A stretch of 58,431 nucleotides of DNA, taken from positions 1 through 58,431 of IMG/VR virus record IMGVR_UViG_3300035665_000039. One strand, 5' to 3'. How positions within the stretch are numbered: position 1 is the first letter of the stretch; each line of letters starts with the position of its first letter. The notes under the pieces are model-generated. The model had not been told where the DNA came from, made no database searches, and saw only the letters and a list, made by a program, of their open reading frames with translations. Both the position numbers and the translations under genes were made by a program. This DNA is from a virus. This document shows positions 8,403-54,717 of the stretch, piece after piece.

Positions 8403-8585
8403 GCGCGGCAGGATTCCGTCCTTCGCGCGCAGCTTTCCGCCCGTGATGTGTTCAATACGCAACTGTTGCAATTTTGGAATCGAACCCCTCGACCGCCAGT
8501 TACTGATCGTCGGCTGGGTGACCCCGATCGCATGCGCAACCGCAACTTGAGTTCCGAAGTGCTTGATAACGCTGTCGATGTCCAT
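8385..8585 (-). CDS. Cro/YdaS-like HTH protein (66 aa, MDIDSVIKHFGTQVAVAHAIGVTQPTISNWRSRGSIP...)
   Basis: The HTH pattern is typical of Cro/YdaS-type regulators. Divergent from the XRE gene. Confidence 0.7.
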   Translation of the reverse strand: MDIDSVIKHFGTQVAVAHAIGVTQPTISNWRSRGSIPKLQQLRIEHITGGKLRAKDGILPRKVSRS

Positions 8586-8615
8586 GTTCTTGTTCCTGAC
8601 TGGTGGGATGTCGAG

Positions 8616-8644
8616 AGTATAGACAATGTGATAGCCAACTGCAA
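8616..8644 (-). promoter_or_regulatory. Leftward early promoter TTGCAG-N17-TATACT with TATCAC-attg-TCTATA in the spacer
   Basis: -35 at 8644-8639, -10 at 8621-8616. About 30 nt upstream of the cro-like ATG (8585). Confidence 0.55.
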
Positions 8645-8674
8645 AGCGGTCGGGCTTACCAGGGGTGGGAAGCA

Positions 8675-9022
8675 ATGACCAAGAACTTTGAAAAGCTCTC
8701 CATCGGCGGTAGGCTCCGATACCTCATGGAGGTCCGGGGGTACACCCAAGTGGCGCTTGCTCACAAAGTTGGCATCACCCAGGCGGCGATCAGCAACATC
8801 GTCACCGACAGCTCGAGGAAGCCCTCGGCCCCTACCCTACTGAAGCTGGCTGCAGCACTGCAGGCCAACCCTCAGTGGATCCTCGATGGTAAGGGTGACC
8901 CCTTCCAGATCAACACCATCGGCGCTCGAGCCGAGCAGGATCTCATCGAAGCATTCCGATCGCTCGATGACCAGGCCAAGGCCGCGATCCTCGCCGCCAT
9001 CAAGGCAATGACCAATCGTTGA
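8675..9022 (+). CDS. XRE-family HTH regulator, candidate prophage repressor (115 aa, no peptidase domain)
   Basis: LRYLMEVRGYTQVALAHKVGITQAAISNIVTDSSRKPSAPTLLKLAAAL is a classical HTH_3 pattern. Divergent from the cro-like gene. Confidence 0.75.
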   Translation: MTKNFEKLSIGGRLRYLMEVRGYTQVALAHKVGITQAAISNIVTDSSRKPSAPTLLKLAAALQANPQWILDGKGDPFQINTIGARAEQDLIEAFRSLDDQAKAAILAAIKAMTNR

Positions 9023-20084: not shown

Positions 20085-20287
20085 ACATTCATAACGCTCT
20101 GATCGGTGTAGCGCTGATGCTCGCTACGATCGGTGGATACGTCCTTTATTGGGCGGCGTGGCGATGGGGCTTCAGTCACTTGTGGCCGAGCGGCCCGAGC
20201 TGGCTCGTGCGCCCAGAGCTACCTTCGTTCCTTGCCTCATGTATCACAGGGCTTATAATCACCTTGTCGATACTCCGAGCATCTTGA
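20081..20287 (+). CDS. small membrane protein (68 aa)
   Basis: Two hydrophobic segments. ATGA overlap upstream and TGATG overlap with int. Confidence 0.5.
   Translation: MNIHNALIGVALMLATIGGYVLYWAAWRWGFSHLWPSGPSWLVRPELPSFLASCITGLIITLSILRAS
20232..20259 (+). promoter_or_regulatory. Candidate int promoter TTGCCT-N16-TATAAT with TATCAC in the spacer
   Basis: Consensus -10 read directly. Lies inside the 20081-20287 ORF, about 28 nt upstream of the int ATG. Confidence 0.45.
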
Positions 20288-21387
20288 TGTCGCGCATCCC
20301 GCATTTCCACGAGAAGTCAGGCGTAAGCAAGAGCGGCAAGAAGTGGACCGCCTACTATCACGTTGCCAAAGTCGAGGGCAAAGTGAAGTGGACCTCGCTC
20401 GGCAGCAACCGCGTGCAGGCGCTGCGCAAGTGGGCGGACATCGAGAAGAGCCCGACGCCGACCGAAGCGGGGACGTGCGACGCGATCTACCAGGCCTTCA
20501 TGGAATGGTTCAAGGGCGAGGTCGAGGGTGGCCGCAACAAGCAGCGCACCTACGATGACCGCGAGACCTACTGGAAGACCATGAAGTCCGTCTTCTCGGG
20601 CAAGCCGATGCAGGCGATCGACTCGGTCGTCGTGCGCAAGTACATCGACAAGCGATCGGCCAAGATCAGCGCCAAGAAGGAGATGCGCTTCCTCTCGGTC
20701 ATGTGGAACTGGGCCAAGGAGCGCGGCTTCGTGACCGGGCCAAACCCTGTCACGGGTGTCAAGCTTCCGACGGAAAAGGGTCGCCAGATCGCGGTGCGCC
20801 CGGAGGACTACTGGCTGGTCTGGGAGTGCGGCGACCAGGTCGTCAAGAACGTGCTCGAGCTGGCCGCCCGTCTTGGCACCCGCCCGGACGAGCTCTTCAG
20901 CCTCGAGTGGAAGCAGGTCGACTACCGATCCAGCCCCATCTCGATCCGCGTCTGGCAGTCCAAGGGCGACGAACCCAGGACCGTGATCGCAGACGACGAG
21001 CTGGAGGCCCTAATCGGGCGCCTACGGGGCGATCGGGAGGTGCCCAAGGGGTTCGTGCTCACCACGGAGAAAGGCGAGCGCCTGAGCACGACTGGGGCCT
21101 TCCGCTACCGGTTCAGCCTGGCCAGGGATCTGGCCGAGACCAAGGCCGAGAAGCTTGGCATTGAGTTTGAGCGGTTCCAGCACCGCGACATCCGACCCAT
21201 GGCCGGCATCTCGACCATGCAGTCCGAGGGGATGGAAGCAGCCCGGCGACTGCTCGGTCACACGACCGAAAAGATGACCGCGCACTACACCTCGAAGCGG
21301 ATCGGGACGGTCGGGAGATCGGCTCCGGTTAGAAGTACTTCTAACCTATCACAAAATATAACCGAGGCCGGAGAGCTAAGTGACTGA
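20287..21387 (+). CDS. int: Tyrosine integrase (366 aa)
   Basis: The C-terminal HRDIRPMAG...LLGHTTEKMTAHY fits the R-H-R-Y catalytic pattern. Adjacent tRNA-derived attP. Confidence 0.85.
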   Translation: MSRIPHFHEKSGVSKSGKKWTAYYHVAKVEGKVKWTSLGSNRVQALRKWADIEKSPTPTEAGTCDAIYQAFMEWFKGEVEGGRNKQRTYDDRETYWKTMKSVFSGKPMQAIDSVVVRKYIDKRSAKISAKKEMRFLSVMWNWAKERGFVTGPNPVTGVKLPTEKGRQIAVRPEDYWLVWECGDQVVKNVLELAARLGTRPDELFSLEWKQVDYRSSPISIRVWQSKGDEPRTVIADDELEALIGRLRGDREVPKGFVLTTEKGERLSTTGAFRYRFSLARDLAETKAEKLGIEFERFQHRDIRPMAGISTMQSEGMEAARRLLGHTTEKMTAHYTSKRIGTVGRSAPVRSTSNLSQNITEAGELSD

Positions 21388-22628: not shown

Positions 22629-23052
22629 GCGCTGGCTACAGAACTGCGGCAAGGAGCCGAGCCCGGAGAATCTGTCGGTCCAGATCGGCTGCCACATCGA
22701 GGAGATGTGCGAATTCTTGCGAACGCTTGAATGCGTCGACATGCTAGCCAGCAAGGATTTGCGTAATGCTATCCACGACCTCGAGTACATCGGCTCGCTC
22801 GCCAAGTCCCGAACCAAGATGATCGTGTTCAAGGAAGGCGCCAGGGAGGCCGCATTGGACGCGCTGTGCGACGCAGACGTCACGGGTAATGGTGTGGCTT
22901 ATCTGGCCGGCATGAACAAAGCCTTGGCCGATCTGATGGTTCTCAAAGCCAACGACGAAAAGCTGGTCGATGGCAAGCCAGTGATATTGCCGGGAGGCAA
23001 GATCGGCAAGCCCGAGGGCTGGAAGCCCCCGGACCTGTCGCCCTACGTCTAG
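22603..23052 (+). CDS. MazG-like nucleoside triphosphate pyrophosphohydrolase (149 aa)
   Basis: Has an EExxE motif (HIEEMCEF), DALCDADV, and the C-terminal ANDEKL..GKP....GKIGKPEGWKPPDL typical of phage MazG-like proteins. Confidence 0.6.
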   Translation: MGSNFLRTKRWLQNCGKEPSPENLSVQIGCHIEEMCEFLRTLECVDMLASKDLRNAIHDLEYIGSLAKSRTKMIVFKEGAREAALDALCDADVTGNGVAYLAGMNKALADLMVLKANDEKLVDGKPVILPGGKIGKPEGWKPPDLSPYV

Positions 23053-26000
23053 GGTTTGCGGGGTGCCTCAAGGCTCTTGAGGTATTCCCGGTTCACCTCG
23101 GTGGCCATCTGGTCACGCGCGACCAAGATCTTGCGGCGCTCGAGCGTCTTCTGAGCCTCGGTCATCTTCTCGTCCCGAATCACCTGAATCTCAGCCTTGC
23201 GCATCTGCGAGATCGCATTGTCGTAGGCGTCGGCCAGTGAGGCCAGGCCAAGCAGTCGCTTCTCGTCGTCGGTCAGCTTGGGCTCGAGTCCGACGCGCGC
23301 CTGCTGCTTGACCTCATCGACCACCTTGCCGATCTCGCGGCTACGTTCGCCTGCGCTGCGGATGTTGGCAGCCTCGTCTACCTCGCCATAGAACTTGTTC
23401 AGCACGGGGATCTTGGCCGCCTTGATGTCCTTGTCGTCGCCTGTCATGGCAAGAATCGAGGAGCCCATCTGCTCGATGAACGAACCCAGGCCGCCCGTCG
23501 TTGCGCTGATCAGGGTCTGGATGGTTCCAGGCGTGACCGAGGTCTCCACGCCTGCGATGCTGCCAGGCTTGGCCTCGTTGCCGCCGCCGAGTCGGTTGAG
23601 CGCAGCGGCAATTTTTGCCGGCACCGTTCCCTGCGAGCTCGTGAACATGCGCTCGGAGTCGGGCTTCGTGTCGAACGGCGAGCGCTCGGGCGAAGACCTC
23701 GTGCCGAAGGTGTTGCGCTCGGACACGAGCTGGATCGGCAGGTCAGCGATCGTGGGCATCGCGGCCAGCAAGACCTGGACGCCATCGGTAGGATCGAACG
23801 ATCCGCCGAACGGGTTGATCGAGCCAAACACGACCGAGGTCATGTGCAGCGCTGCCTTGGTGGGTGTCAGGCCGCGCCGCGGGTCTTCTTGGTTGCGGAC
23901 GCTATCAGCAATGACATACCCCAGGTTCGGAAAGATGTTGAATCCGAACTGAACCGGGATCGTGAAGTAACGACCGCGCTTGCCCACGCGCTGGATACCG
24001 TCGGCCAGGGGTTCGCCGGGCGGCAGCATGATGACCATGTTGCGCTCTTTGACGTAGCCGGGGATCTTGTCCCAGTAGGCTTCGCCGTCGTCGTCCTCGC
24101 CCCCTGCAGAAGCCCCGTAGAAGGCCAGCATGGCGCCGATACCGGCCACCCCTGCCATAGCCCCAGCCACAGCCGGCGAGCGCAGCACGCGCGCGAATTG
24201 GGCCGTTCCTTGGACCGCTGCGTTGTAGAAGAGGTACAGGTTGTTGAGCGCCCCACCCCACTCACCCTTGCGGTTGAAGTTGGTCGTGCCGTTCTTGGCG
24301 AGCAGAGCTGCCTGCACGCGGGTCCTGCCGCTTTGCTTGGCCGCGGAGTAGAGCGCGAACCGGGTTGCATTCTCGGACGCGGCACCCAGGAACTCGAGCG
24401 CCTTGAGCGTGAGCCTGGCCAGCTTGTAGGTGCGGGCTGCCTTGATGCGCTCGATCGCGCCGCGGGGCTTGGCGCCAGCGGCAAGCATCTCGTTGCGCAG
24501 GTCCTTCTCGATGTCCTCGAGGCCGCGGATATAAAAGCCGCCCGTGATCCCGCCAGCGTTGCGGAACTCCTGGTAGAGCTGACTGGTCTGGGCGCCGAGC
24601 TCGGACTTCGAAGACTGCACAAGCGCTGCGCCGTAAGAGGCCAGGTACCGGGCAAGACCTTTGGGGCCGAGCTCCGCAAGCGCAGCAGTTGTACCCGACC
24701 ACAGCGCGTCGCGCGGAATGTTGATTGCTGCGAAGGCTGGGTTGTACCGGGTGAGCATGTTGCGCATCCAGTTGTTCCACCAGCCCGACATGGCCACGAC
24801 GGCACGCTCGAATCCGCTCGTCTCGTCCTTCCATGCCTGACGCAAAGCGCGCGCAAGATCCGGGTCAGCAAGCTTGATATAGACCTGCTGGCCACCGACC
24901 TTGACGCCGATCGTGTCGTCGCCCTTTTCGATCTGCCTGGTGTACTGCACAAGGCCGGTCGCCTTGTTGAATGCCGGCTTGGTGCGCTCGACGTCCACGT
25001 CCCACAGGTCGGGATCGGGGTTCGACAGCACGAAGTCCAGCAGCACCTTGCCGACGTCGTTCTTCTCGACGCGCATCACCACGCGCTCGTAGTCGCGGAT
25101 CACGTTCTCGATCAGATCGGACGCACGCGAGCGGCGGCCCATGGCGCGGATCGTTTCCTTGCCGCGGATGTTGACCCCGCGGCCAACGCCTGGACGCATG
25201 CGTCCTTCGTCGTCCACGTTCTCGAGGCCGCGCAGCGGGATGTAGTTCTGGTACGCACCATCGAGCGCGGTGAACTCGTCCTGCGTGATCAGACCTTCAG
25301 CGAGCATGATCTGGCGAGTGGTCGAAGCAATCGTCATCAGGTCGCGATGAAGCTCTTCGTACTGCTGCGCCTTGGGTCCAGACTGGACCTGCTGCAGGAT
25401 CGTGTTCGCGTCAGCAGTCTTCATGCCAGAGCCGCCGTCAGGCATGCGCTGGTTGATGCTGGCGATGTAGTCGTTACGCTCCTCGGCGTGCTTAGCGTAG
25501 GCATAGAGCGCGAGCTCATCGAGGTCGATGTCGTAGCTCACCGCCTTGTCGATCATGGGCTGCACGATCTGCGACTTGAAGTCGTCCATCGCAGCCTGGA
25601 TGCGGCCCGGCATGAGCGTGTTCGCGTCGTAGAAGTTTTGGGCTTCGGTGACAGTACCGCCCTGCTCCCTGACCGCATCGATCACGCGCTTCATGCGCAG
25701 CGCGTCGTCTTGCAGAGCGCGCCTTGCGTCGTCGGTCATCGATGGTGCGGGCAGACGGAAGCGACCGCCGATCACGCTCAGGCGTTGACGACGGTTGCTT
25801 GCTGTAATGTCCGGGTCTTTAGGGTCGAACGTGCCGCGGTTTCCACTGGCGGATTTGATCTGGGTGCTGTCAAAAGCAACGATGACTTGCTTGACGCCGT
25901 TCTCATCAACAGCGATCAGCCCGTCCACGGACCCGTCGGTCATTGCCCTGTCAAGTGCGTCAGCGCTGTATTCAGAAAAGGAAATGACTCGCGGGTTTTT

Positions 26001-29000
26001 CATACTGACAAACACGGGCATGACGTTGCCGCCATCGCCTGTTGCCATGGCGTTGGCATAGCTTTTGGATTCGCTTGCAAAGTAGGCGTCGCCAAACTTT
26101 TGACTCGGCCGGAACTCATTGAAGTCGTTGTTTGTCCCGTGATAAACCACCAGCGGCTTACCTTCTGCATCCACTACCTTGCTGTCGCCGAACCAGCGCT
26201 TGAACGCTGGCGTCTCAGTCTGCGCACGGTTGCTGAATGCAGGCGTATCGGCCAGACCTTGGGGCGAGGATTCGGCCCGGTAGTTATCGCCAATCCAGCG
26301 CATCAAGTCCATGTCGCTCTTGACCTTGCGATCAGCAATCATGGAGCGCAGTTTCGGCGCCACGGCAGGCCACGGCGTGAAGAACTTATTGAACGGACGA
26401 CCAGCCTGTGATAACATCTGTGATGTGGATGCGCTGGGTGGAGTTACCGGGACAGGCCCGGAACGTTGAGATCCAGATTCATCCACCACCCCAACATCCG
26501 GTCGACCTGTCAGTGCAGGCTTGGCCAGCGCCAGATCCACATAGCGAGCGGCGCCCTCGTTGATCCTCCGAAGAATCGTGTCCGCGTTGCGATCGCCTGG
26601 ATCGACAATGCGGCGCTGGTACGCCGAGTTGATGTACGCGTTGCTGCGCGAATTCGAATCGGCCACCGTGATCGGAACGAAGATCGCGCCAATGTCACCC
26701 GTCATGGGTAGCACGAGCTCCTTCTCGTTTGGCGACTGCCTGCTCTGCAGAACAAGCGCCGGGCGATACAGGCCACGGACAAACTGCTCAGGCGTGATGC
26801 TGGCGAACTCCTCGGCGTGCTTGTCGACAAACACCTTGCGGATGATGCTCGGTGCGATCTGCAGGTCCTGGGTGCTGGCGCCGAGCATGTTCATCACATG
26901 CGGCAAACGACCCAAGACGACGGGCTCGGGGTTCAAGCCGTAAGACGGATCGGCGCGCAGTCGATTGATCGCACGCGTGAGCGCCCTGGCGCCGTTGCGG
27001 ATGTCCGCCTCGAGCGCGCTTTGTGGCGAAACCTTGGGTAGCCTGCGGCGCTCGCTTGCGGCGATACTGTCCTCTTCGTCAAGCTTGCGGGCGAGCTCGT
27101 CCTTGTACATCGGTGCGGTCGATGACCAGACCGGGCTGTCTTCGAACTGGGCGTAGACCTCCGGCATCATGGCCTTGATCATCCGCGACCACTCGGTGCC
27201 GTCCATGCGGCCCGCAGGCAGCGAACGGTTGGCCGCAATCTTCTCGGCGTCGCTGAGCACACGCTCAGCAGGCGGCACAATGTCGTCCGTACGCATGCGA
27301 GTCTGGCTTCCGAGCTGCTGGACGCCGACCATGTGTTTCCCCAGCAGGACTGCGACGCCCGAGGGACCTGCGTCGCGGGTCATGTAGCCATCGAACCCGG
27401 CATTCATGACCGCAAGCTCGAAGGCATTCGCGCCGCGGTTGTTGCGCGCCAGGCGCTGGCTGTCCGCACCCATGTCGTACAGGTTCTGCAGCCGGACGCG
27501 GTGTGCAAAACCGCCGACGCCGGCCTCTGGGTTGATGCCGGTACCGCGGTCGAGGTAGAAATAGACACGCTGCTTCAGCCGCGGGTCTGAGCCTTCCAAA
27601 CGGGCCATCTCGGCACCCTTGAGACCGGTGCCGTAGGCAGTGCTGAGTAGTGTGGTGCGGGACTGTCGGCTGTAGTGGTAGCCAACTGCAGAGGTGGCGC
27701 CCTCTCGGGGGGCACCATACTCAGGGATTACTCCCCGAACTTCCTCTTCAGAGCTTCTTCCAACGCCTGCTGCGCTGGTTGCATCGGATCGGTTGCTGAA
27801 CTCGATTCCTTCGGCTCGGAGCTCTTGCTCGAGGGCTGCGGTCGCTTCTGACCGAAGATCACGAGCCCGTTGCCGAAGTACCGCTCTGCTTCCTCGTCCG
27901 TCATTGGTCGAACTGGCATAGTCGTACTCCTGTTTGCTTGGGAATGCCGCGAATACTTCACGGGTCAGAACACTATAAGCTTTGTTAAGTTTTTGGTCAA
28001 CAAGAATCGCAAGCTCGCTCGTCGGAACGTCCGAGAAGTTGAGCACCGTCATGCCGCCGTTCGCGTACGACTGGCCGCCAATCGGCTTCTCGCCGTTGAC
28101 TTCGATCTCGCGAAGCTGGTTGTAGATCACCTCGATCTCCTGGGGTGTCTTGTCGCCCACCTGGATCACGAGCGCGGTGTTCTTGTCGCCGCCTTTGAAC
28201 TCTTTTGGCGAGACCACGACCATCGAGTCCTGGGCGAGCACGAAGCCGAGCATCTTGGAGATCTCGACCGGATCGCCCTTGTTCAGCAATAGCGCAAACG
28301 AGGGGTTCGTGTCGTCCAGATAACTGCCGACCTGCTCTGCCAGGATGCCGTCGGTATTGAACTCGGCGAGCACCCGCGGCACGATAGTCCGCGCAACGCG
28401 ATCGCTGATCGCAAGACGCTGCGCAGGATCCAGTGATCGCCAGGTCTCGGTGAGGGCGGCGTTGTTCGGGTCTGGAGCGACCTCGAAAACAACGGCGCGA
28501 CGCTTGGGGTCTAGTCTTTCTTGGGCGAGCTGGGTGCGCTCGTATCGGTCGCGGATGAATCGCTCCCGCTCCCCAGTTTCGAGCGGGCCAGATCTCCCAG
28601 CTTCTTGACCAGCGCTTTGCGATCCTTGTCCGACATCTGCTGCATTCGTTTGTCGAATGCTTCTTGATCCAGATTCGGCTGCTGTGCGGAGTCGTTGTTC
28701 ATCGTATCCCTCTTGCTTGAGAACCTTCTCGGTTGCGCCTGCGTAGTCCTGGCTGGTCACGCTGAGCTTGACGCCCATCGCCTTGTAGAGCTCCTGCTCA
28801 GGGTACCAAATGAGTGCCTGCATGGCAGCCGGCGGGATCCGCTGGCCGTAAGCCTTCTCGACCTGAGCCACTGCCTTGCGCACGACTTCGCGCAGCAGGC
28901 GACGCTCGCCACCGCTGGCGGGTACGTCCCTCGGCTTGTCGAGCGACTGCACCATCGTGTCCGAAGCGAGCACGAGCTGCGACTTCTTGCGGGTGCCAGC

Positions 29001-32000
29001 GTCGAATTCGGCGCGGTTGTTCTTGAAGTCTTTCTCGTGGGCCTTGCCGACTTGGCGAGCGAGCTCGATCGCAGCATCCTGATCTTCTCGGGCGCGTGCC
29101 ACGAGCTCTGCATCGAACTGATCGGCGTACACGCCATCGGTGCCAGTCTGATCGAGGGCGCCGCGCAGGCGCGAGAGTTGCGCTGAGAACTTCTCAGCAT
29201 CGAATGCGCGCAGGCTACCGGTCAACCGGCCGATGGTCCGCATGAACCACATGTCCATGGTGACCGGCTCGAAGTTGCCGTTCAGGTTGGAGTAGAAGCC
29301 GAATCCGATCTTCGGACCGAAGACAGACGACCCGAGCACCATCTCATCGATCAGCTCGCCGCCAGGCTCGAAGCCCGCACGGTTGAGCTCACCGATCGTG
29401 AAAGGAGTCACGAGGAACTGACGGAACAAGTCAATGCCCATCTCATCGATGAGCGCGTTGGCCAGCTTGAAGTTGCCGACCATGACCGATGCCGAGTCGC
29501 CCTCGCCCACCTCCGGGTACTTGCCGGTCTTGCGGTAGGTGTCGTACTGACGCATCGTGAACTTGAGATTGTTCTCGACGTTCAGGCCTTGCGAGGTGAT
29601 CGCCATCGCGAGGCGGAAGATCATTTGAGCGTTGCGGTCGCTCTGCAGCTCGGGGTACTTGACCGCGGCCATCGCAAGCGTGCGGGCAATCGTCTCGTCG
29701 TACCACTCGAGCGCATTGCCCGCGGAGCGGATCGCGGCCAGCGTCTCGGCTGCCATCAGCTTGGCGACGGTGTCCTGGTCCTCGGGGTTGGCGATGTCCA
29801 GCAGTCGCAGGCCAGAAGCGCGGCGACGGTCCTCGAGGAACTTGACGACCTCCGGGATGCCGCCCTTGAGCGGTGCCACGAAGGCGCGATCCTTGGGTTC
29901 GCCGGTCTGGTACTCGAGGGAGGTGGAAGCGAGCTCAGCGTCGCTGAGGCCTAGCTTCTTCTTGATCGCGGAGGCGATCTTCTTGTCGACCTTGGGCTCC
30001 TTCTCGAGCACCTCAATGACCTTGTCTGCATCATCGGAGCGGAAGGTGATGCGGTCGCCATCAACCTTGAATGGCTTGGCGACATCGCGCGCCAGGAAGC
30101 GGATGCGGTCGGCATCCTTGGTAAAGACAATGCGACCCTTTTCGTCCTTGGTGAACTTGTACCTGCCGGCGCTGCTGCTTACGGCGTCTCTTTGCCCGAC
30201 AGATCCGCTCCGTCCTTGAGCGCTTCCTGGAAGGCCTTGTCCATCTTCTGCCGCCAGAGCTTCGCCTCGAGCTGCTCCTGCGGCGTCAGGGAATCCTTCG
30301 ATGGTTGCTTGGTAGATGGCGTCGTCGATACGGCCGGCTTGGTATTCGGTTTCGGTTGCATTGAGTAGTCTCTCCTTCAGTCCAGATTTTATCACAGGCG
30401 TGATACTTTGGAGCGGCAAAAGCGCCGCCTTGCCCGGACCGCGCGAGTTGTCGATCGCATAGAGGGCGAAGTTGGGGTTGTCACCGAATTCATCCTGTAG
30501 CTTTCGCACTACTTCGCTCGAGCCCGCATGGCCTTTGACCAAAGCATCGAGCGGAACAGCGCGGCGCGTCTTCATGGCGCGCGTCAGCACGCCATTGACC
30601 AGCGCCTCCTCGGGTTCGCGGTAGATGTATGCGATGACCACACGCTGGCCGCGGTCGAGTACGCGTTGGACGTTGCGCCTTGCTTTGTCGTAGCTCGAGA
30701 GGGTGCCATCCAGGATCGTATGAACGCTGTCCTGCACCTTGCTGAGAAGCGTATCGGCAGAGGACTTGCCGGCCCCGCCGCCGCCGGCCATGAAGAGCAC
30801 GCTCGACTTGCGCGGTGCAGCATCGACGCGAGCTTCGAACATGCGCTGGGTCATGTTGCTGGCCGCATCGTGAACCTCGGCAGCCCGAGTCTTGTCGGCG
30901 CGGTAATCGGGCGAGAGCTCGCGGACCAGGTCGGTGTCGATCAGCTTGCCGTCTTGAGCGCCAGGCAGTGCGCTGTACTCAGCAACCGCGGCGTCGAAGT
31001 CGCCGTCAATCCTGGCCTGCAGCTTGTCGTTGATGTTGCCGCCAGCCTTGTTGCTGAACATGAAGTCGGCTTTGTCGCCGTAGACCGGATTCTTGGCCAG
31101 GACCAATGGGCCGATCTGGATGACTTCGTCAGCGGAGATCACGGGCTCCATGGTTGAGCGATCGTAGAAGTACGAGTGCCGCTCGGGGTCCATGCCGACC
31201 TGTACCCAGTCCTTGGACTTGAGCGCCTGGTCGGCTTTCATCTTGGCTTCGGCCGAGCTCGTAGGCTTCCAGTCGCCCATGATGGTGGCGATCGTGCCTT
31301 TGTTTGCGCCTGCGGCGATCTTGGCTGCAGACTTCTCGAGCATGCCGAACCTGACATTGGTTACTGAGGCAACCGGCTCGTAGCCGATCACCGTGCCTGC
31401 ACCGAAGGACTTGCCATCGGGGCGATGCACGCTGACAACCCAGGCGCCGTGCTCGGAGTAAGACGGAATATCGAGGCGCAGTTGAGCAGCCTCGCCGAGC
31501 TTGAATACCTGGCTTGGCAGACCGAACTTGGCGGCCTTTTCTGCCGACTGCCCGCGGCCATTGGCAAGCGCGAACTTGGCAGCCTCGGGGGTAACCGGAT
31601 CCGGCACCGTTTCGTAGGGTTCGACGGGCTTGTACTCGTTGACCAGCCGGTCGTAGTCCTGCTTGGTGATCTCACCAGCCTGCAGCGCTCGCATGCCTTC
31701 CTGTAGCTCGGGCGTGCGCTTGATGACGTCCTTGAAATCCATCCCGATACGCGAGCGCGAAGACTCGGCGACGTCGGTCGCGACGTCGGGCTTGAGGCCC
31801 TGCGCCTTCATGGCTTCGGCGTACGCGTCGGTAAGAAGACTGCGAGCTCGCTCGACGTCCTTGATGTACTTGGACACGAACTCGTCGCCGTACTCCTTCT
31901 TGGCGCCGGTCACGATCTGAGTAAGTTTGCTCAGGATGACCTTGGCCACCTCGGCAAACTCCTTGTTGCCCATCTTCGTGCGCAGCTCTTCCCAGAAGTC

Positions 32001-34703
32001 GGCACGTTTGCTGACCGCCTGGGCCATCAAGGCCGGGGCCTCTTCATCGAACTTGGCGTCGTCGTACCCGAACTCGGCTTGGAACTCGCCCTTGCGTTCT
32101 TGGTTGAACACCTCGAGCAGTGCAGCGTTGAGTTGCTTGCGACGCTCTGCAGGTAGGCCATGCAAGCCTTCGTGCATGGCAATCGACAGCGGCGCGTCAT
32201 CCGCATTGGCGTCGATGAAGATGTGCTTGCCGCCCAGGCGGTTGATGAACCCATTGGGCATGCCGGCCGGGTCACCTTTGACCGCACGGACCACCGTCAG
32301 CGTGTTGCCCATCAGGCGGGCTACCGTGCTTGCCAGACGCTGCGAATCGCTCAGGTCCGCAGGCGAGATCGCTTCGACGGTTACACCGCGTCGCTTCTCG
32401 AGCTGGGTCTGGACGTTCTGAAGCGTTGTCGCGGGCGCGGGTAGCGCGAGTCTCAGTCCGGCACGTTCAGAATCAGACAGTTGGACTTGCGCTGCGGGGG
32501 CTTGGCCTCCTGCAACAATGCCGCCTTGTGCGGCACCCATTGCTTGCTCTTGTTGCTGTCCTTGCGTTTCTGCTTGCTGGGCTTGAGTGGCTTGAGTGCC
32601 AAGGCTGCTCTCCTGAGGATAGCCGGCCAGTCGGAATTTGCCGTTGGGCATCTGCTCGATGGACCACGACAAGTCTTTGAACATGCGCTGCCGGCTGGGT
32701 AGCGCTTGCTCCGCATCCATGAGCGTGACGTATCCGTCACCGCGTCGGCCCGTCCAGATCTCGGTCGGGACTACAGCATTGTTATCTTGTCCGATCGCGG
32801 CTTCCGTGCGGGCCAGCAGGTCCGCATCCGATGCGCGAGGGATCGGGCTCGTGCTCGTCAGATTGGCAAGTCGTTGAGGGGCTCCGCCTCGAAGAGCATC
32901 ATCTTGTTGATCGGCCCCTCGAATTCCTGCGAGAGCTCCACCCGGCACCCCGGCGGCGAGATCAAGATCACGTCCTGCAGCATCCACGCCTCGTTGGTCG
33001 AGAGCACTCGTGCGTCCAGCGCCTCCTGCAAGTGGGGGTAGAGTTGAGCCTGGCGTGCTGACATCACTACCTCCGATGATGGCCGGCGCATCGGGCACCG
33101 GAATGACGATATCCACCAGGCCGGCGCGCTGAGTCGCTGAACCTGGCTCAGTGAAGTTGGTGAGGCGTGCTGCTTGTGCGGCCTCCTGTGCGCGACTGGC
33201 GGCACCCAGCACGCTGAAAGGTGCGGAGGTAACGAGCGCCTGGCCCATCGCCTCGGGGACGCCCTCGGTTAGCTTGACGTTCGGGTCGACTGTCCTTGCG
33301 ATGACATTTGAGACAGCTTGTGTACCACCTTCTTCAGCCTGTTCGCCAAGCAAGTCTCGGATAATGGTTTTCCCCACGCCGGAAGCAGTAAGAGCTTGCG
33401 CAGTGGCCGTGCCCAAACCTCGAGTTGCGATCGCAGCTTCGGCGCCCGCAAAACCAAGCAACCCAAGCGGGAAAGCTACAAGCGCAGCCATTCTGGCTTT
33501 AGTGGTTGAGAGGTCTTCAATCGCTTGCTGCGGCGTCTTGCCCTCGGCAACCATGCGTTGAAAGTCAGGGTTCTTTTCCCAGACTGATAGCGGGGTTTGC
33601 GTTGGGTCGGTGAGCTTTTCATAGACACTGCCAGCAGCATCGCCGCCAGCCATGGTCATAGCCGCAGCTCTGCCCCCTGCCACCGCTCCGGTTGCACGCG
33701 CGCCTGCTTGTATTGCTCCGCCGGTGATCGCGTCACTGAAAGCTACTGCGGGGCTCACACGGCTCGCTACGTTGACACCAGCACCACCAGCTGCGGCACC
33801 CAGGCGCGAAGCGCCCAAGACACCCAGGAACATGGGCACTTGCTTGGCGGCTTCGGAGATGGTGAGCGCGGGGCTCGTGACGAGCTGCACGACCGTTGCC
33901 GCGTACTTGTCGAAGAAGCCCTCTTCCTGCTGCACACGCTGGCGCAACTGGTCGCGCTGAGCTTTGAGCACGTCGCTCTCGGCGGCCTGCCATTCCTTCT
34001 GAGTCTGGCGAAGCGTCTCAGCGATGTCGCTACTCGGGGCGATGATGTTGATCGGGAGCTGAGCCAGGGAGATGGCGCCTTGCGATAGGCCCGAAAGCGT
34101 ATCGATTGCCCACTCGCCTGCGCTTCGAAACTCGTCCGCCTTCGCATCGCGGACCATGTCCTGTACGACTGGCCGATTCGTGCGCTGAATCATGTCGTCC
34201 AGCGACGGAACCTTCTGCTCTTCCATCGACTGAGCGACCTTGGCGACGATCGGACTCGAGGGCCTGGCTCGACCTGCGCGGACGTCGGCCGCCTGTTGTA
34301 CGGTCTGCGTGCTGATCGGCCCGGCACCCAGCGATAGGCGCTGATCGATCGACGCTTGGCGCTGCTCGGCGGTGGGCTGATAGCCCTCCATGACGCTGGG
34401 CTTGGGCGCCGGCTTGAATACGTCAGTGAGGCGCGCAATCAGTCCGCGATTGTCCGCGGGAGGAGGCGTGCCTTGCATCGATGTGGCCGCGTCGCCGAAG
34501 TCAGTGCCGGCGATCTCAGGCGCCTGAGGGCGCTTGATCGAGGTGTCTACCAGGAACTGGCCGCGTGCCAGGTCGATGTCTTCGGTTGGAACTTGAGGAG
34601 CGATGACCTCATCAAAGTATTGACGACGCGCCTCTTCCTGCTGTTCGTAGGAGAGGGCCTGGAATGCGGAACTTGCCGCTACGTCAGACCACTTCTTTGC
34701 CAT
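23049..34703 (-). CDS. Giant multidomain (polyvalent-type) virion protein, 3,884 aa
   Basis: An uninterrupted 11.6-kb ORF. Recognisable modules: HExxH (MHEGLH, 32160-32177); a zeta-toxin-like P-loop kinase (GGGGAGKS, 30762-30785); an ART-like domain (FKRWFGDSKVVD...VVYHGT..., 25839-26204); and Gly/Ala-rich hydrophobic segments at both ends. Confidence 0.85.
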   Translation of the reverse strand: MAKKWSDVAASSAFQALSYEQQEEARRQYFDEVIAPQVPTEDIDLARGQFLVDTSIKRPQAPEIAGTDFGDAATSMQGTPPPADNRGLIARLTDVFKPAPKPSVMEGYQPTAEQRQASIDQRLSLGAGPISTQTVQQAADVRAGRARPSSPIVAKVAQSMEEQKVPSLDDMIQRTNRPVVQDMVRDAKADEFRSAGEWAIDTLSGLSQGAISLAQLPINIIAPSSDIAETLRQTQKEWQAAESDVLKAQRDQLRQRVQQEEGFFDKYAATVVQLVTSPALTISEAAKQVPMFLGVLGASRLGAAAGGAGVNVASRVSPAVAFSDAITGGAIQAGARATGAVAGGRAAAMTMAGGDAAGSVYEKLTDPTQTPLSVWEKNPDFQRMVAEGKTPQQAIEDLSTTKARMAALVAFPLGLLGFAGAEAAIATRGLGTATAQALTASGVGKTIIRDLLGEQAEEGGTQAVSNVIARTVDPNVKLTEGVPEAMGQALVTSAPFSVLGAASRAQEAAQAARLTNFTEPGSATQRAGLVDIVIPVPDAPAIIGGSDVSTPGSTLPPLAGGAGRTSALDQRGVDAAGRDLDLAAGVPGGALAGIRGADQQDDALRGGAPQRLANLTSTSPIPRASDADLLARTEAAIGQDNNAVVPTEIWTGRRGDGYVTLMDAEQALPSRQRMFKDLSWSIEQMPNGKFRLAGYPQESSLGTQATQAQQAETQGQQQEQAMGAAQGGIVAGGQAPAAQVQLSDSERAGLRLALPAPATTLQNVQTQLEKRRGVTVEAISPADLSDSQRLASTVARLMGNTLTVVRAVKGDPAGMPNGFINRLGGKHIFIDANADDAPLSIAMHEGLHGLPAERRKQLNAALLEVFNQERKGEFQAEFGYDDAKFDEEAPALMAQAVSKRADFWEELRTKMGNKEFAEVAKVILSKLTQIVTGAKKEYGDEFVSKYIKDVERARSLLTDAYAEAMKAQGLKPDVATDVAESSRSRIGMDFKDVIKRTPELQEGMRALQAGEITKQDYDRLVNEYKPVEPYETVPDPVTPEAAKFALANGRGQSAEKAAKFGLPSQVFKLGEAAQLRLDIPSYSEHGAWVVSVHRPDGKSFGAGTVIGYEPVASVTNVRFGMLEKSAAKIAAGANKGTIATIMGDWKPTSSAEAKMKADQALKSKDWVQVGMDPERHSYFYDRSTMEPVISADEVIQIGPLVLAKNPVYGDKADFMFSNKAGGNINDKLQARIDGDFDAAVAEYSALPGAQDGKLIDTDLVRELSPDYRADKTRAAEVHDAASNMTQRMFEARVDAAPRKSSVLFMAGGGGAGKSSADTLLSKVQDSVHTILDGTLSSYDKARRNVQRVLDRGQRVVIAYIYREPEEALVNGVLTRAMKTRRAVPLDALVKGHAGSSEVVRKLQDEFGDNPNFALYAIDNSRGPGKAALLPLQSITPVIKSGLKERLLNATETEYQAGRIDDAIYQATIEGFPDAAGAARGEALAAEDGQGLPGSAQGRSGSVGQRDAVSSSAGRYKFTKDEKGRIVFTKDADRIRFLARDVAKPFKVDGDRITFRSDDADKVIEVLEKEPKVDKKIASAIKKKLGLSDAELASTSLEYQTGEPKDRAFVAPLKGGIPEVVKFLEDRRRASGLRLLDIANPEDQDTVAKLMAAETLAAIRSAGNALEWYDETIARTLAMAAVKYPELQSDRNAQMIFRLAMAITSQGLNVENNLKFTMRQYDTYRKTGKYPEVGEGDSASVMVGNFKLANALIDEMGIDLFRQFLVTPFTIGELNRAGFEPGGELIDEMVLGSSVFGPKIGFGFYSNLNGNFEPVTMDMWFMRTIGRLTGSLRAFDAEKFSAQLSRLRGALDQTGTDGVYADQFDAELVARAREDQDAAIELARQVGKAHEKDFKNNRAEFDAGTRKKSQLVLASDTMVQSLDKPRDVPASGGERRLLREVVRKAVAQVEKAYGQRIPPAAMQALIWYPEQELYKAMGVKLSVTSQDYAGATEKVLKQEGYDEQRLRTAAESGSRSIRQTNAADVGQGSQSAGQEAGRSGPLETGERERFIRDRYERTQLAQERLDPKRRAVVFEVAPDPNNAALTETWRSLDPAQRLAISDRVARTIVPRVLAEFNTDGILAEQVGSYLDDTNPSFALLLNKGDPVEISKMLGFVLAQDSMVVVSPKEFKGGDKNTALVIQVGDKTPQEIEVIYNQLREIEVNGEKPIGGQSYANGGMTVLNFSDVPTSELAILVDQKLNKAYSVLTREVFAAFPSKQEYDYASSTNDGRGSRAVLRQRARDLRSEATAALEQELRAEGIEFSNRSDATSAAGVGRSSEEEVRGVIPEYGAPREGATSAVGYHYSRQSRTTLLSTAYGTGLKGAEMARLEGSDPRLKQRVYFYLDRGTGINPEAGVGGFAHRVRLQNLYDMGADSQRLARNNRGANAFELAVMNAGFDGYMTRDAGPSGVAVLLGKHMVGVQQLGSQTRMRTDDIVPPAERVLSDAEKIAANRSLPAGRMDGTEWSRMIKAMMPEVYAQFEDSPVWSSTAPMYKDELARKLDEEDSIAASERRRLPKVSPQSALEADIRNGARALTRAINRLRADPSYGLNPEPVVLGRLPHVMNMLGASTQDLQIAPSIIRKVFVDKHAEEFASITPEQFVRGLYRPALVLQSRQSPNEKELVLPMTGDIGAIFVPITVADSNSRSNAYINSAYQRRIVDPGDRNADTILRRINEGAARYVDLALAKPALTGRPDVGVVDESGSQRSGPVPVTPPSASTSQMLSQAGRPFNKFFTPWPAVAPKLRSMIADRKVKSDMDLMRWIGDNYRAESSPQGLADTPAFSNRAQTETPAFKRWFGDSKVVDAEGKPLVVYHGTNNDFNEFRPSQKFGDAYFASESKSYANAMATGDGGNVMPVFVSMKNPRVISFSEYSADALDRAMTDGSVDGLIAVDENGVKQVIVAFDSTQIKSASGNRGTFDPKDPDITASNRRQRLSVIGGRFRLPAPSMTDDARRALQDDALRMKRVIDAVREQGGTVTEAQNFYDANTLMPGRIQAAMDDFKSQIVQPMIDKAVSYDIDLDELALYAYAKHAEERNDYIASINQRMPDGGSGMKTADANTILQQVQSGPKAQQYEELHRDLMTIASTTRQIMLAEGLITQDEFTALDGAYQNYIPLRGLENVDDEGRMRPGVGRGVNIRGKETIRAMGRRSRASDLIENVIRDYERVVMRVEKNDVGKVLLDFVLSNPDPDLWDVDVERTKPAFNKATGLVQYTRQIEKGDDTIGVKVGGQQVYIKLADPDLARALRQAWKDETSGFERAVVAMSGWWNNWMRNMLTRYNPAFAAINIPRDALWSGTTAALAELGPKGLARYLASYGAALVQSSKSELGAQTSQLYQEFRNAGGITGGFYIRGLEDIEKDLRNEMLAAGAKPRGAIERIKAARTYKLARLTLKALEFLGAASENATRFALYSAAKQSGRTRVQAALLAKNGTTNFNRKGEWGGALNNLYLFYNAAVQGTAQFARVLRSPAVAGAMAGVAGIGAMLAFYGASAGGEDDDGEAYWDKIPGYVKERNMVIMLPPGEPLADGIQRVGKRGRYFTIPVQFGFNIFPNLGYVIADSVRNQEDPRRGLTPTKAALHMTSVVFGSINPFGGSFDPTDGVQVLLAAMPTIADLPIQLVSERNTFGTRSSPERSPFDTKPDSERMFTSSQGTVPAKIAAALNRLGGGNEAKPGSIAGVETSVTPGTIQTLISATTGGLGSFIEQMGSSILAMTGDDKDIKAAKIPVLNKFYGEVDEAANIRSAGERSREIGKVVDEVKQQARVGLEPKLTDDEKRLLGLASLADAYDNAISQMRKAEIQVIRDEKMTEAQKTLERRKILVARDQMATEVNREYLKSLEAPRKP
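25839..26204 (-). other. ADP-ribosyltransferase-like domain of the giant protein (polyvalent-protein ART type)
   Basis: The motif FKRWFGDSKVVDAEGKPLVVYHGTNNDFNEF...GDAYFASE...VMPVFVSMKNP matches what I recall for ART domains of phage/plasmid polyvalent proteins. Confidence 0.55.
27728..27919 (-). CDS. Embedded +1-frame small ORF C (63 aa, MPVRPMTDEEAERYFGNGLVIFGQKRPQPSS...QQALEEALKRKFGE)
   Basis: AGGAG (27931-27927) with a 7-nt spacer before ATG 27919. GC3 is about 71% versus about 46% in the giant frame (hand count). Its own promoter is at 27972-28000. Confidence 0.5.
   Translation of the reverse strand: MPVRPMTDEEAERYFGNGLVIFGQKRPQPSSKSSEPKESSSATDPMQPAQQALEEALKRKFGE
27972..28000 (-). promoter_or_regulatory. 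Internal promoter TTGACC-N17-TATAGT inside the giant gene
   Basis: -35 at 28000-27995, -10 at 27977-27972, exact 17-nt spacer. Sits in a short AT-rich island of an otherwise GC-rich gene, about 50 nt upstream of ORF C. Confidence 0.55.
28511..28702 (-). CDS. Embedded +1-frame small ORF B (63 aa, MNNDSAQQPNLDQEAFDKRMQQMSDKDRKALVKKLGDLARSK...)
   Basis: GAGGG (28712-28708) with a 5-nt spacer before ATG 28702. GC3 is about 71% versus about 43% in the giant frame. Confidence 0.45.
   Translation of the reverse strand: MNNDSAQQPNLDQEAFDKRMQQMSDKDRKALVKKLGDLARSKLGSGSDSSATDTSAPSSPKKD
30179..30361 (-). CDS. Embedded +1-frame small ORF A (60 aa, MQPKPNTKPAVSTTPSTKQPSKDSLTPQEQLEAKLWRQKMDKAFQEALKDG...)
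   Basis: AAGGAGAG lies upstream (GGAG 30375-30372, 10-nt spacer) of ATG 30361. GC3 is about 78% versus about 44%. Starts right after the zeta-like domain. Confidence 0.45.
   Translation of the reverse strand: MQPKPNTKPAVSTTPSTKQPSKDSLTPQEQLEAKLWRQKMDKAFQEALKDGADLSGKETP
30386..30405 (-). promoter_or_regulatory. Perfect operator TATCAC-AGGC-GTGATA (30390-30405) overlapping an extended -10 (TGATAAAAT, 30394-30386) inside the giant gene
   Basis: Read directly. Same operator/-10 geometry as the 9057 and 12463 promoters. No good -35. Confidence 0.45.
30430..31010 (-). other. Zeta-toxin-like P-loop kinase domain of the giant protein (approximate limits)
   Basis: The sequence KLIDTDLVRELSPDYRAD...AAEVHDAAS...VLFMAGGGGAGKSS...VVIAYIY fits the pattern of zeta-toxin/AAA_33-type kinases. 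Confidence 0.55.
32858..33064 (-). CDS. Embedded +1-frame small ORF D (68 aa, MSARQAQLYPHLQEALDARVLSTNEAWMLQDVILISPPGCRVELSQEFEGPINKMMLFEAEPLNDLPI)
   Basis: GGAGG (33074-33070) with a 5-nt spacer before ATG 33064. GC3 is about 88% versus about 36% in the giant frame over the same bases. Ordinary, non-junk composition. Confidence 0.55.
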   Translation of the reverse strand: MSARQAQLYPHLQEALDARVLSTNEAWMLQDVILISPPGCRVELSQEFEGPINKMMLFEAEPLNDLPI

Positions 34704-39131: not shown

Positions 39132-39159
39132 AAACTAAAATGGCCCGCAAAAGCGAGCC
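39132..39159 (-). terminator. Terminator-like hairpin (RNA: GGCUCGC-UUUU-GCGGGCC-AUUUUAGUUU)
   Basis: 7-bp stem with one G-U pair and an interrupted U-tract. Lies between the lysis cassette and ATG 39120. Confidence 0.45.
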
Positions 39160-39216
39160 AATGCCGGCCGTGCGCTGGGCGCACTGGTCCGGCGAGGATT
39201 GTAGCAAGAAAATACG

Positions 39217-39227: not shown

Positions 39228-39731
39228 TCAGTCCGATTTCTCGTTGAATTTCGCCCTTACTTCGTTGTAGGCGTCGATGCAGGCGTTGAGCTGTCGGATG
39301 GCTTCGTCTCCTTCGGAGGCGATGGATACAAGAGTTCCAGCAGCCTCTGCTGCAAGTTCGGCTCGCGCTTCAGGTCGATCCCCGCTGGCAGCGGCGGCAC
39401 CTTGGGCTTCGGGGCGAGGACAGGCGGAGGCGACGGGGATTGACATCCGAAGAGCGCCAGAGCGGATGTCAGCAACAATGCGGTCAGAGCGGTTCTTTGC
39501 ATCACGAATTTCCTTTGCGTGCTTGGAGGCGAGGTCGTTCAATCGTTCAGAGGCCTCGGTCTCGACCTTGCGTACAGCGTCCGTAGCCTCAGCCAACTTT
39601 TTTGCAGAGAGCGCCTCCATCTCGGCGAAGCGCTTCCCCCACTTGGTGTCGGCGTCAGCCTTGCCCCACCAGTAACCGAGCCCCAGCGCAATCAGCACCG
39701 AGACCAGCAAGATCAGAATTCGCTCGGTCAT
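39228..39731 (-). CDS. Rz: i-spanin (Rz-like), 167 aa
   Basis: N-terminal TM (ILILLVSVLIALGLGYWW) followed by coiled-coil. ATGA overlap with the endolysin stop. Contains an embedded lipoprotein ORF. Confidence 0.7.
   Translation of the reverse strand: MTERILILLVSVLIALGLGYWWGKADADTKWGKRFAEMEALSAKKLAEATDAVRKVETEASERLNDLASKHAKEIRDAKNRSDRIVADIRSGALRMSIPVASACPRPEAQGAAAASGDRPEARAELAAEAAGTLVSIASEGDEAIRQLNACIDAYNEVRAKFNEKSD
39257..39505 (-). CDS. Rz1: o-spanin (Rz1-like lipoprotein) fully embedded in Rz in another frame, 82 aa
   Basis: Signal plus lipobox-like LALFGC, then Pro-rich mature sequence. Classical embedded arrangement. Confidence 0.65.
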   Translation of the reverse strand: MMQRTALTALLLTSALALFGCQSPSPPPVLAPKPKVPPLPAGIDLKREPNLQQRLLELLYPSPPKETKPSDSSTPASTPTTK

Positions 39732-40471
39732 ACCTTTCCCCTGTATTTCGGCATCCGGGTGTGGATCACGTCGTGGACGTGGTGCCGGTTGATGTCGCAG
39801 GCTGATCGGCCCGCATAGAGCGGCTTGGTGGACTTCAGGCAGACGTTCTCGACATGGCCGAACCATTGATTCGGATCACACCCGGCGCGCGATGCGCAGG
39901 CTCTGCGCTCGTTGAGCAACCCACCGAGCCCGCCGTTGTACGCAGCGTCAGTCATCTGGAGCCTGGCGCCGTCTTCAGGCACAAGCTTCTGCAGCCGGTT
40001 CCAATTCTGTCGAGTCATCAGGATGATCACTCGGATCTGCAGGTCCGGCCGCTGGTAGACCGTATCCCAGCGCAGCTCGTTGAGTCCGCGGGGATCAACC
40101 TTGCGCATGTCGTTGAGCGCATCGAAGCGGATCGACCCGTCCGGGTTGTACGCTCGAGTCAATTGCCCAAGGCCTGCGCCCTCCTCCCGGCTCGTCTTCA
40201 GCCGGCTCGTCGGCGACCAGCACCGTGAGTGCTTGAGTGAGATGCAGCTTTCGTGCTCGATCAGTGCCGGAAAGTAGTGCGGCTCGGGCATCCGCTCCCA
40301 CACTTCCTTGTACTGAATCGTCACCCAGTGCAGGTACTTCTCCGCATTGGAGGGGATGAACGTGCGGACATCCTGAGCGAATGCGGCCTGGCTCAGCAGC
40401 GCAAGAACGATCGCGGCAGCGAATCGTTTCAGCGCGCGACCGTGCCGGCGAAAAAGCTCAATAGAGACCAT
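39728..40471 (-). CDS. Endolysin, lytic transglycosylase-like, with N-terminal signal/SAR-like sequence (247 aa)
   Basis: The N-terminus AAAIVLALLSQAAFAQD and ALIEHESC...GAGLGQLT fit an SLT-type catalytic Glu context. Position in the lysis cassette. Confidence 0.6.
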   Translation of the reverse strand: MVSIELFRRHGRALKRFAAAIVLALLSQAAFAQDVRTFIPSNAEKYLHWVTIQYKEVWERMPEPHYFPALIEHESCISLKHSRCWSPTSRLKTSREEGAGLGQLTRAYNPDGSIRFDALNDMRKVDPRGLNELRWDTVYQRPDLQIRVIILMTRQNWNRLQKLVPEDGARLQMTDAAYNGGLGGLLNERRACASRAGCDPNQWFGHVENVCLKSTKPLYAGRSACDINRHHVHDVIHTRMPKYRGKV

Positions 40472-54690: not shown

Positions 54691-54717
54691 AAAAAAAACG
54701 GCGCCACTGGGGCGCCG
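54691..54717 (-). terminator. Strong rho-independent terminator (RNA: CGGCGCC-CCAGU-GGCGCCG-UUUUUUUU)
   Basis: Perfect 7-bp GC stem, 5-nt loop and eight U residues. Read directly. Confidence 0.85.

Follow-up and report, generated by a model that had tools for sequence, protein, structure and literature searches.

A near-consensus promoter-like sequence ahead of a conserved embedded frame in a phage polyvalent-protein gene

What is a near-consensus sigma70 promoter sequence doing deep inside a giant phage gene? The question is raised by the IMG/VR virus record IMGVR_UViG_3300035665_000039, a complete phage genome with direct terminal repeats, whose 58,431 bp are called the window here. Within the gene for a polyvalent protein, its minus strand carries the hexamers TTGACC and TATAGT separated by 17 nucleotides (nt), a sequence that reads cttgTTGACCaaaaacttaacaaagctTATAGTgttctgaccc, upstream of a small open reading frame (ORF) in another frame, ORF-C. 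On the comparative sequence evidence set out below, ORF-C is a genuine and deeply conserved embedded gene. For the hexamers, we put at roughly one half the probability that they are part of its AT-rich leader, the promoter not being the selected feature.

The elements concerned are as follows.

27995..28000, minus strand: −35-like hexamer TTGACC, matching TTGACA at five of six bases and made of the codons Val GTT and Asp GAC with the first base of Gln CAA
27972..27977, minus strand: −10-like hexamer TATAGT, matching TATAAT at five of six bases with A2 and T6 present, and made of Tyr TAT and Ser AGT
27965, minus strand: predicted transcription start, 7 nt after the −10 hexamer, if the hexamers act as a promoter
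27940..28029, no strand: AT-rich patch of GC content 0.43, within a stretch (−130 to +30 nt relative to the ORF-C start) that is GC-poor and weakly structured as RNA across the family
27927..27931, minus strand: Shine-Dalgarno (SD) sequence AGGAG, 7 nt before the ORF-C ATG (27919-27917)
27728..27919, minus strand: ORF-C, which occupies the +1 frame of the giant gene with 63 codons and a stop; its product starts MPVRPMTDEEAERYFGNGLVIFGQKRPQPSS
27746..27951, minus strand: excess synonymous-site conservation in the giant frame, starting about 30 nt before the ORF-C start (the SD is covered) and ending about 20 nt before the ORF-C stop
23049..34703, minus strand: giant gene for a polyvalent protein of 3884 amino acids, the last gene of the minus-strand structural operon

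Evidence for the embedded gene ORF-C

The sequence of the window alone proves nothing about a promoter, and the evidence must come from relatives. A first protein scan gave three IMG/VR contigs, and a protein database provided 141 homologues of the giant gene. Homologues were picked with an alignment of only the 131 residues upstream of the site, so that their selection is independent of the site itself. The 49 loci fetched from viral and metagenome contigs represent 27 lineages that share less than 90% identity over the region and have GC contents of 0.38-0.65; these lineages are related to one another, and combined p-values thus overstate significance. Among GenBank phages, a DNA search returned one weak match only and a protein search three uncultured phages, none with an embedded coding sequence annotated.

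ORF-C lies wholly inside 34703..23049, where (34703-27919) mod 3 = 1, and its product includes the peptide MPVRPMTDEEAER. Its start is a common feature of the family. At all 43 loci with the YDY motif, the second tyrosine is encoded by TAT followed by G, creating the +1-frame ATG, while the first is nearly always TAC; each of these loci also has an SD-like run and an open +1 frame of 47-89 codons. Measured against each lineage's own codon usage, the tyrosine codon at the ORF-C start is TAT in 27 of 27 lineages where 8.7 would be expected (z 8.1). An SD-like run stands 6-9 nt upstream of the ATG in almost all relatives, and codon −4 ends in G in 24 of the 27 lineages. In 26-27 of the 27, the minimum of predicted RNA structure coincides with the ATG itself (mean z +1.6).

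The frame that follows is equally marked. It is open in every lineage over 47-89 codons, across GC contents of 0.38-0.67; single lineages are unremarkable in the open-frame test (p 0.01-0.25), and the combined p of about 1e-7 is inflated by relatedness. Over ORF-C codons 0-29, the third positions of the giant frame are nearly frozen, with CGT (z 11), GGA and GAC each present in 27 of 27 lineages, and the leucine that ORF-C reads as phenylalanine uses a codon ending in T or A in all of them. Synonymous codon identity in eight close relatives climbs from 0.5-0.65 upstream to 0.83-0.97 over 27935-27746 and falls to about 0.4 around the ORF-C stop. This constraint holds where the giant frame itself varies, amino-acid identity being only 0.3-0.5 at 27800-27760. 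The most distant homologues (L026-L029, 36-43% identity) and GenBank MW202640 keep an ATG-led +1 ORF, and these ORFs have in common the core ...G.G..[VI].[FC]G.K[RL]P..SS. In a search of 1.84 billion representatives, 38 small-protein clusters aligned to ORF-C from residue 1. Taken together, the ATG, the SD, the unstructured start, the open frame and the synonymous constraint argue that ORF-C is a genuine gene, and they make a control element at this place sensible.

The ORF-C peptide has a conserved head of 30 residues and a tail rich in Ser, Pro, Lys and Glu. Pfam and PHROGs searches with ORF-C and its longer homologues gave nothing above threshold, and AlphaFold2, run on the alignment of 27 sequences, predicted two short helices with a predicted template modelling score (pTM) of 0.24 and no fold worth searching. 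Some homologues, such as P0151 (186 aa) and P0130 (131 aa), extend well past the head, and the extension of P0151 is non-repetitive; the embedded gene may encode a larger protein in some phages.

Other explanations of the small frame were rejected. Against a programmed frameshift into ORF-C stand the SD and ATG that belong to this frame, and the lack of a slippery run ahead of 27919. An o-spanin of the Rz1 type is not consistent with a sequence devoid of Cys, lipobox and signal peptide, nor does an in-frame intragenic antitoxin resembling Rpn_S agree with a location in the +1 frame. A mosaic or recombination junction does not account for the conserved island either: the indels between the window and its relative L001 lie about 900 nt downstream, and the constraint tracks the ORF-C borders.

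A second frame of the giant gene, ORF-B (28702..28511, minus strand), resembles ORF-C. Its head, at 28611-28702, has a synonymous identity of 0.86-0.92 for a giant-frame amino-acid identity of only 0.44-0.62; the constrained stretch corresponds to its first 30 codons or so and coincides with a second GC dip (0.52), without a promoter-like site ahead of it. Seven close relatives, scanned over 3.2 kb, showed extended stretches above 0.8 only at ORF-C and at the head of ORF-B, with an isolated window near 27495 reaching 0.81. A further island at 29306-29246, where a single pairwise comparison gave high third-position identity, was not upheld with seven sequences (0.62-0.69).

The promoter-like site in the window and its relatives

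The spacer between the hexamers is exactly 17 nt, within the 17±1 nt of sigma70 promoters, and the leader predicted from 27965 to the ORF-C ATG would measure 46 nt, SD included. The minus-strand stretch around the hexamers is gcgattcttgTTGACCaaaaacttaacaaagctTATAGTgttctgacccgtgaagtattcgcggcattcccaagcaaacAGGAGtacgactATGcca. GC content is 0.43 in 27940-28029, against 0.58-0.70 in the flanks (the coding sequence has about 62% GC), and the hexamers encode part of residues ~2235-2244 of the giant protein, LVDQKLNKAYSV, with TAT and AGT both rare codons in the window genome. The hexamers, their spacing, the AT-rich patch and its position before ORF-C had all been described in the earlier note on this DNA, and every coordinate proved correct. 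An Rfam search of 27000-29500 (E<=1) gave no match, and a structured RNA element was rejected, the fold of 28030-27880 being no more stable than shuffles (z +0.54).

How unusual is such a site in this genome? With a sigma70 weight matrix it is the top match on both strands of the 58.4-kb genome, at 15.6 bits; the matrix is that of Escherichia coli, and the host of the phage may have a different promoter consensus. Of 20 mononucleotide-shuffled genomes, 5 contained a match of 16 bits or more. A consensus scan found 11 sigma70-like sites in 56 kb, compared with about 13 in dinucleotide shuffles; the count was 2 against 2.4±1.6 between 20 and 36 kb, and 5 against 4.7 and 4 against 6.0 in the remaining 40 kb. 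By these counts, sigma70-like sites do not occur beyond chance in the genome.

The giant protein has no indels at the site, so that every lineage can be read in register. The window's clade, comprising the window, L008, L009, L030, L032 and L035, retains TTGACC together with TATAGT or TATACT. Elsewhere the motif drifts: L033 has CGGACC/TATAAT and L034 TAGATC/TATACT, further lineages show TAGACA/TACAAT, TGGACS/TATAAT or TTGATS/TATGAT, and MW202640 has TTGACA/TTTAAT, in which the essential A of the −10 hexamer is lost. Nothing usable is present at the hexamers in L015, L016, L020, L024, L025, L044, L045 and L050. Altogether, about 8-10 of the 27 lineages keep ORF-C without a promoter-like site.

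Much of what is conserved belongs to the protein. Wherever the peptide [VI]-D-x-K-L-x-x-x-Y-[NST]-V is encoded, T.GA.., TA.... and a spacing of 17 nt follow; it sets 7 of the 12 hexamer bases, and only four third-codon positions in the hexamers are free to change silently. Close relatives show a synonymous identity of 0.62-0.66 over the hexamers, no different from the baseline, with one 10-codon window reaching 0.78. The second base of the −35 hexamer is as often A as T across the 27 lineages. At 24 of 32 loci, no same-strand control window scores as high as the best site ahead of ORF-C. The three records with an integrase all score high for the promoter and complete relatives without integrase also carry the motif; in these few records, integrase presence does not sort lineages by promoter score.

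Codon choice was assessed by resampling synonymous codons, each lineage keeping its amino acids and its own codon usage. In the fixed register, p is about 0.001-0.002 in the near clade, 0.03-0.09 in L017, L022, L034, L014 and L033, and 0.2-0.97 elsewhere; near-clade sequences share ancestry, and their p-values are not independent. In lower-GC lineages, the observed score is as predicted from amino acids and codon usage (p 0.2-0.9). The wider leader shows a family-wide trend. Codons ending in A or T are in excess across the 27 lineages at codons −31, −27, −24, −23, −18, −13, −12, −7 and −5 (z 3.1-5.5), the GC content of the island is about 0.45 in nearly all lineages regardless of a genome GC of 0.39 to 0.65, and RNA structure is weak from −130 to +30 around the ORF-C start in most of them.

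Leader, promoter or by-product

The reading to which we give even odds regards the hexamers as part of the leader of ORF-C. Ribosomes would start at the SD and ATG of ORF-C on any mRNA covering them, and the long late operon transcript would suffice for ORF-C translation. Because that transcript covers them, ORF-C, its SD-ATG and its unfolded start would not need a promoter. The promoter look would be written mainly by the conserved peptide of the host protein, and the A/T-ending codons that keep a leader of about 100 nt GC-poor and unfolded would supply the remaining hexamer bases. It would be largely a by-product, since a third of the lineages have lost the motif, synonymous constraint over it is at baseline and most hexamer bases are peptide-driven. 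ORF-B, which has an AT-rich dip and synonymous constraint but no promoter-like site, counts on the same side. Promoter activity in the window's clade would then be an optional extra, not maintained by selection family-wide.

Several observations weigh against the leader as the whole explanation. The excess of A/T-ending codons reaches 93 nt before the ATG (codons −31, −27, −24, −23 and −18; z 3.7-5.5), and ribosome binding usually needs less than that upstream. The largest upstream excess concerns T alone, precisely at the sixth base of the −10 hexamer (17 of 27 lineages, against 6.1 expected; z 5.4). The excess of A/T-ending codons is also absent in about 10 lineages that keep ORF-C, mostly of lower GC, so that the AT-rich leader is not indispensable either. 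With a null tilted to the observed content of A/T-ending codons, taking the maximum over the whole 100-nt region, p remains 0.003-0.025 in the near clade, 0.037 in L017 and 0.025 in L018, for a median of 0.25 over all lineages. In L018 and L021 (IMGVR_UViG_3300034198_005752 and 3300042691_005803) the homologous register is poor, and a 15-bit TTGATT-18-TATTAT sits 38 nt further upstream (~1880-1920 in L018), consisting of GTA, TTA, TCA and ACA, A-ending codons that are rare in this genome, whose third codon positions have a GC content of 0.73; this looks like the same function at a relocated site. The upstream A/T excess, the T signal in the −10 hexamer and the three independent GC-rich lineages are what a real but dispensable promoter would leave. 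A working, selected internal promoter of the sigma70 type is a serious contender, to which we give somewhat less weight than to the leader: host RNA polymerase would start near 27965, with ORF-C as the first cistron. Under such a promoter ORF-C could, a little short of even odds, be expressed while the late operon is silent, during early infection or in the prophage, in the manner of a moron; it is similarly conceivable that the promoter is present in the window's clade and weaker or relocated in about two thirds of the family. The site has for it the best sigma70-like match of the genome, an ideal spacing and a 46-nt leader with SD. Its free positions use the rare codons GTT, TAT and AGT, with near-clade p-values of about 0.001 under the codon usage of the locus, and the two further GC-rich lineages that reach p 0.025-0.04, one of them with the shifted site, are independent. 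To these are added the family-wide enrichment of T at −10 position 6, the 24 of 32 loci in which the site before ORF-C beats all control windows, and an integrase that implies a prophage state, all three integrase-bearing records scoring high. However, the genome holds no more such sites than its shuffles, the peptide motif forces 7 of 12 hexamer bases as well as the spacing, the near-clade sequences are not independent, no excess synonymous constraint covers the hexamers, 8-10 lineages and MW202640 do without the site or its essential A, integrase-free complete relatives carry the motif too, and the consensus of the host may differ from the matrix used. The conservation of the hexamers at synonymous sites, which the earlier note had proposed as a check, is divided. 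It stands in the window's clade, where rare codons are retained (p ~0.001-0.002 by codon resampling, 0.003-0.025 when AT-matched), and codon choice goes beyond the coding constraint in two other GC-rich lineages as well; in the rest it fails, the motif being gone in 8-10 of 27 lineages and the A lost in MW202640. Synonymous identity over the hexamers is at background.

It is improbable that the hexamers and the AT-rich patch are functionless in themselves and arose as a chance by-product of a peptide rich in Lys, Asn, Tyr and Leu and of shared ancestry in one clade. Site numbers at chance expectation genome-wide, a match of at least 16 bits in a quarter of the shuffled genomes, baseline synonymous identity over the hexamers and lower-GC scores explained by amino acids would all agree with such an origin. 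Yet it leaves aside the position-specific excess of A/T-ending codons from −40 to −5 in 27 lineages (z up to 5.5), an island GC that stays near 0.45 whether the genome is at 0.39 or 0.65, the weak RNA structure from −130 to +30 in most lineages, and the location of the site directly upstream of a gene itself under selection. Also unlikely, if slightly less so, is the more elaborate proposal that a dedicated host-polymerase promoter lets a temperate phage express ORF-C apart from the late operon, and that the peptide, serving as partner, chaperone, antidote or exclusion factor, targets either the cell or the giant protein with its toxin domains. The earlier suggestion that the promoter might also serve the C-terminal third of the giant gene found nothing in its support.

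Phage context, known systems and significance

The domains recognized in the giant protein are the following.

aa 1328-1406: Zeta_toxin (PF06414, 42 bits)
aa 2845-2959: ART-PolyVal (PF18760, 72 bits)
aa 3544-3768: LPD38 (PF18857, 66 bits)

These Pfam matches all exceed the curated cut-offs, and the protein is therefore a polyvalent protein. Its gene closes a minus-strand structural operon running from the terminase (58377) through the portal, the major head protein and the tail fibre or spike genes. The minus-strand gene array contains three strong terminator-like hairpins with long T runs, at 54699-54717 after the portal gene, at 39141-39160 after the gene 39228..39866 and at 1228-1244 near 1.2 kb; because of these, the 'late operon' may be several transcription units. 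A promoter-like TTGCGT-17-TATTAT also lies at 54807-54779 on the minus strand. Compared with its close relatives L001 and L002, the giant gene lacks a segment of about 520 nt at one point and has about 430 nt extra at another (~27069-27082 and ~25799-26225, giant-gene positions 7622-7635 and 8478-8905), and domain-sized cassettes appear to be swapped within it.

A tyrosine integrase is encoded at 20842-21297 on the plus strand; the phage is thus probably temperate, and the lysogens invoked in the earlier note are a reasonable setting. The second-best sigma70-like site of the genome, TTGCCT-16-TATAAT at 20232-20259 on the plus strand, lies just inside the 5' end of the listed integrase ORF (TTG at 20149). 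It may be the integrase promoter, the true start codon being further downstream. A complete relative, IMGVR_UViG_3300042860_000909 (59,361 bp), is about 90% identical in the giant gene and gave no integrase match; the lysogeny module may differ between near-identical phages. A search of the genome contigs found no relative, hence no clue to the host. A search for a T7-type RNA polymerase gave no hit, but its control was equally silent and the result carries no information.

Intragenic promoters of the sigma70 type, moron promoters included, are known in bacteria and prophages. The window resembles them by its TTGACC-17-TATAGT in an AT-rich patch within a coding region and by a short leader before an SD and ATG; it differs in that its start is predicted only, and that the hexamers are largely peptide-forced and not conserved with ORF-C family-wide. 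Genes embedded in the +1 frame are classical in phages. The Rz1 gene of phage lambda is embedded in this way in Rz, is missed by gene callers and is rich in disorder-promoting residues, and a tail rich in Pro, Ser, Lys and Glu is typical of overprinted genes (PMC6139136). Like Rz1, ORF-C is small, has its own start and such a tail, is contained entirely in a larger phage gene, in its +1 frame, and escapes gene callers; unlike Rz1, it has neither lipoprotein signal nor Cys, and its host gene encodes a virion polyvalent protein instead of a lysis protein. Rpn toxin genes harbour an internal promoter and start site from which a small protein is made (bioRxiv 10.1101/2023.05.02.539157). ORF-C is comparable as it is encoded in a large gene with toxin-type domains (Zeta_toxin, ART-PolyVal), with an internal ribosome site and a possible internal promoter. 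However, Rpn_S is in frame and constitutes the C-terminal tail of the large protein, whereas ORF-C, in the +1 frame, has no residues in common with the giant protein. The host gene itself joins the polyvalent proteins of phages and conjugative elements through its ART-PolyVal and LPD38 domains; for this group, the literature searches brought up neither an embedded gene nor an internal promoter.

Giant polyvalent-protein genes are annotated as single ORFs. Here, an AT-rich island marks the head of a second gene in another frame, one that is kept throughout the family yet missed by standard gene callers and absent from the Pfam and PHROG libraries. Should the promoter not be real, the locus is a warning that a conserved peptide and A/T-ending codons can write a near-consensus promoter almost entirely. 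If the promoter is true, a transcription unit with its own timing would reside in a late structural gene, and the reading of phage and prophage expression would change accordingly.

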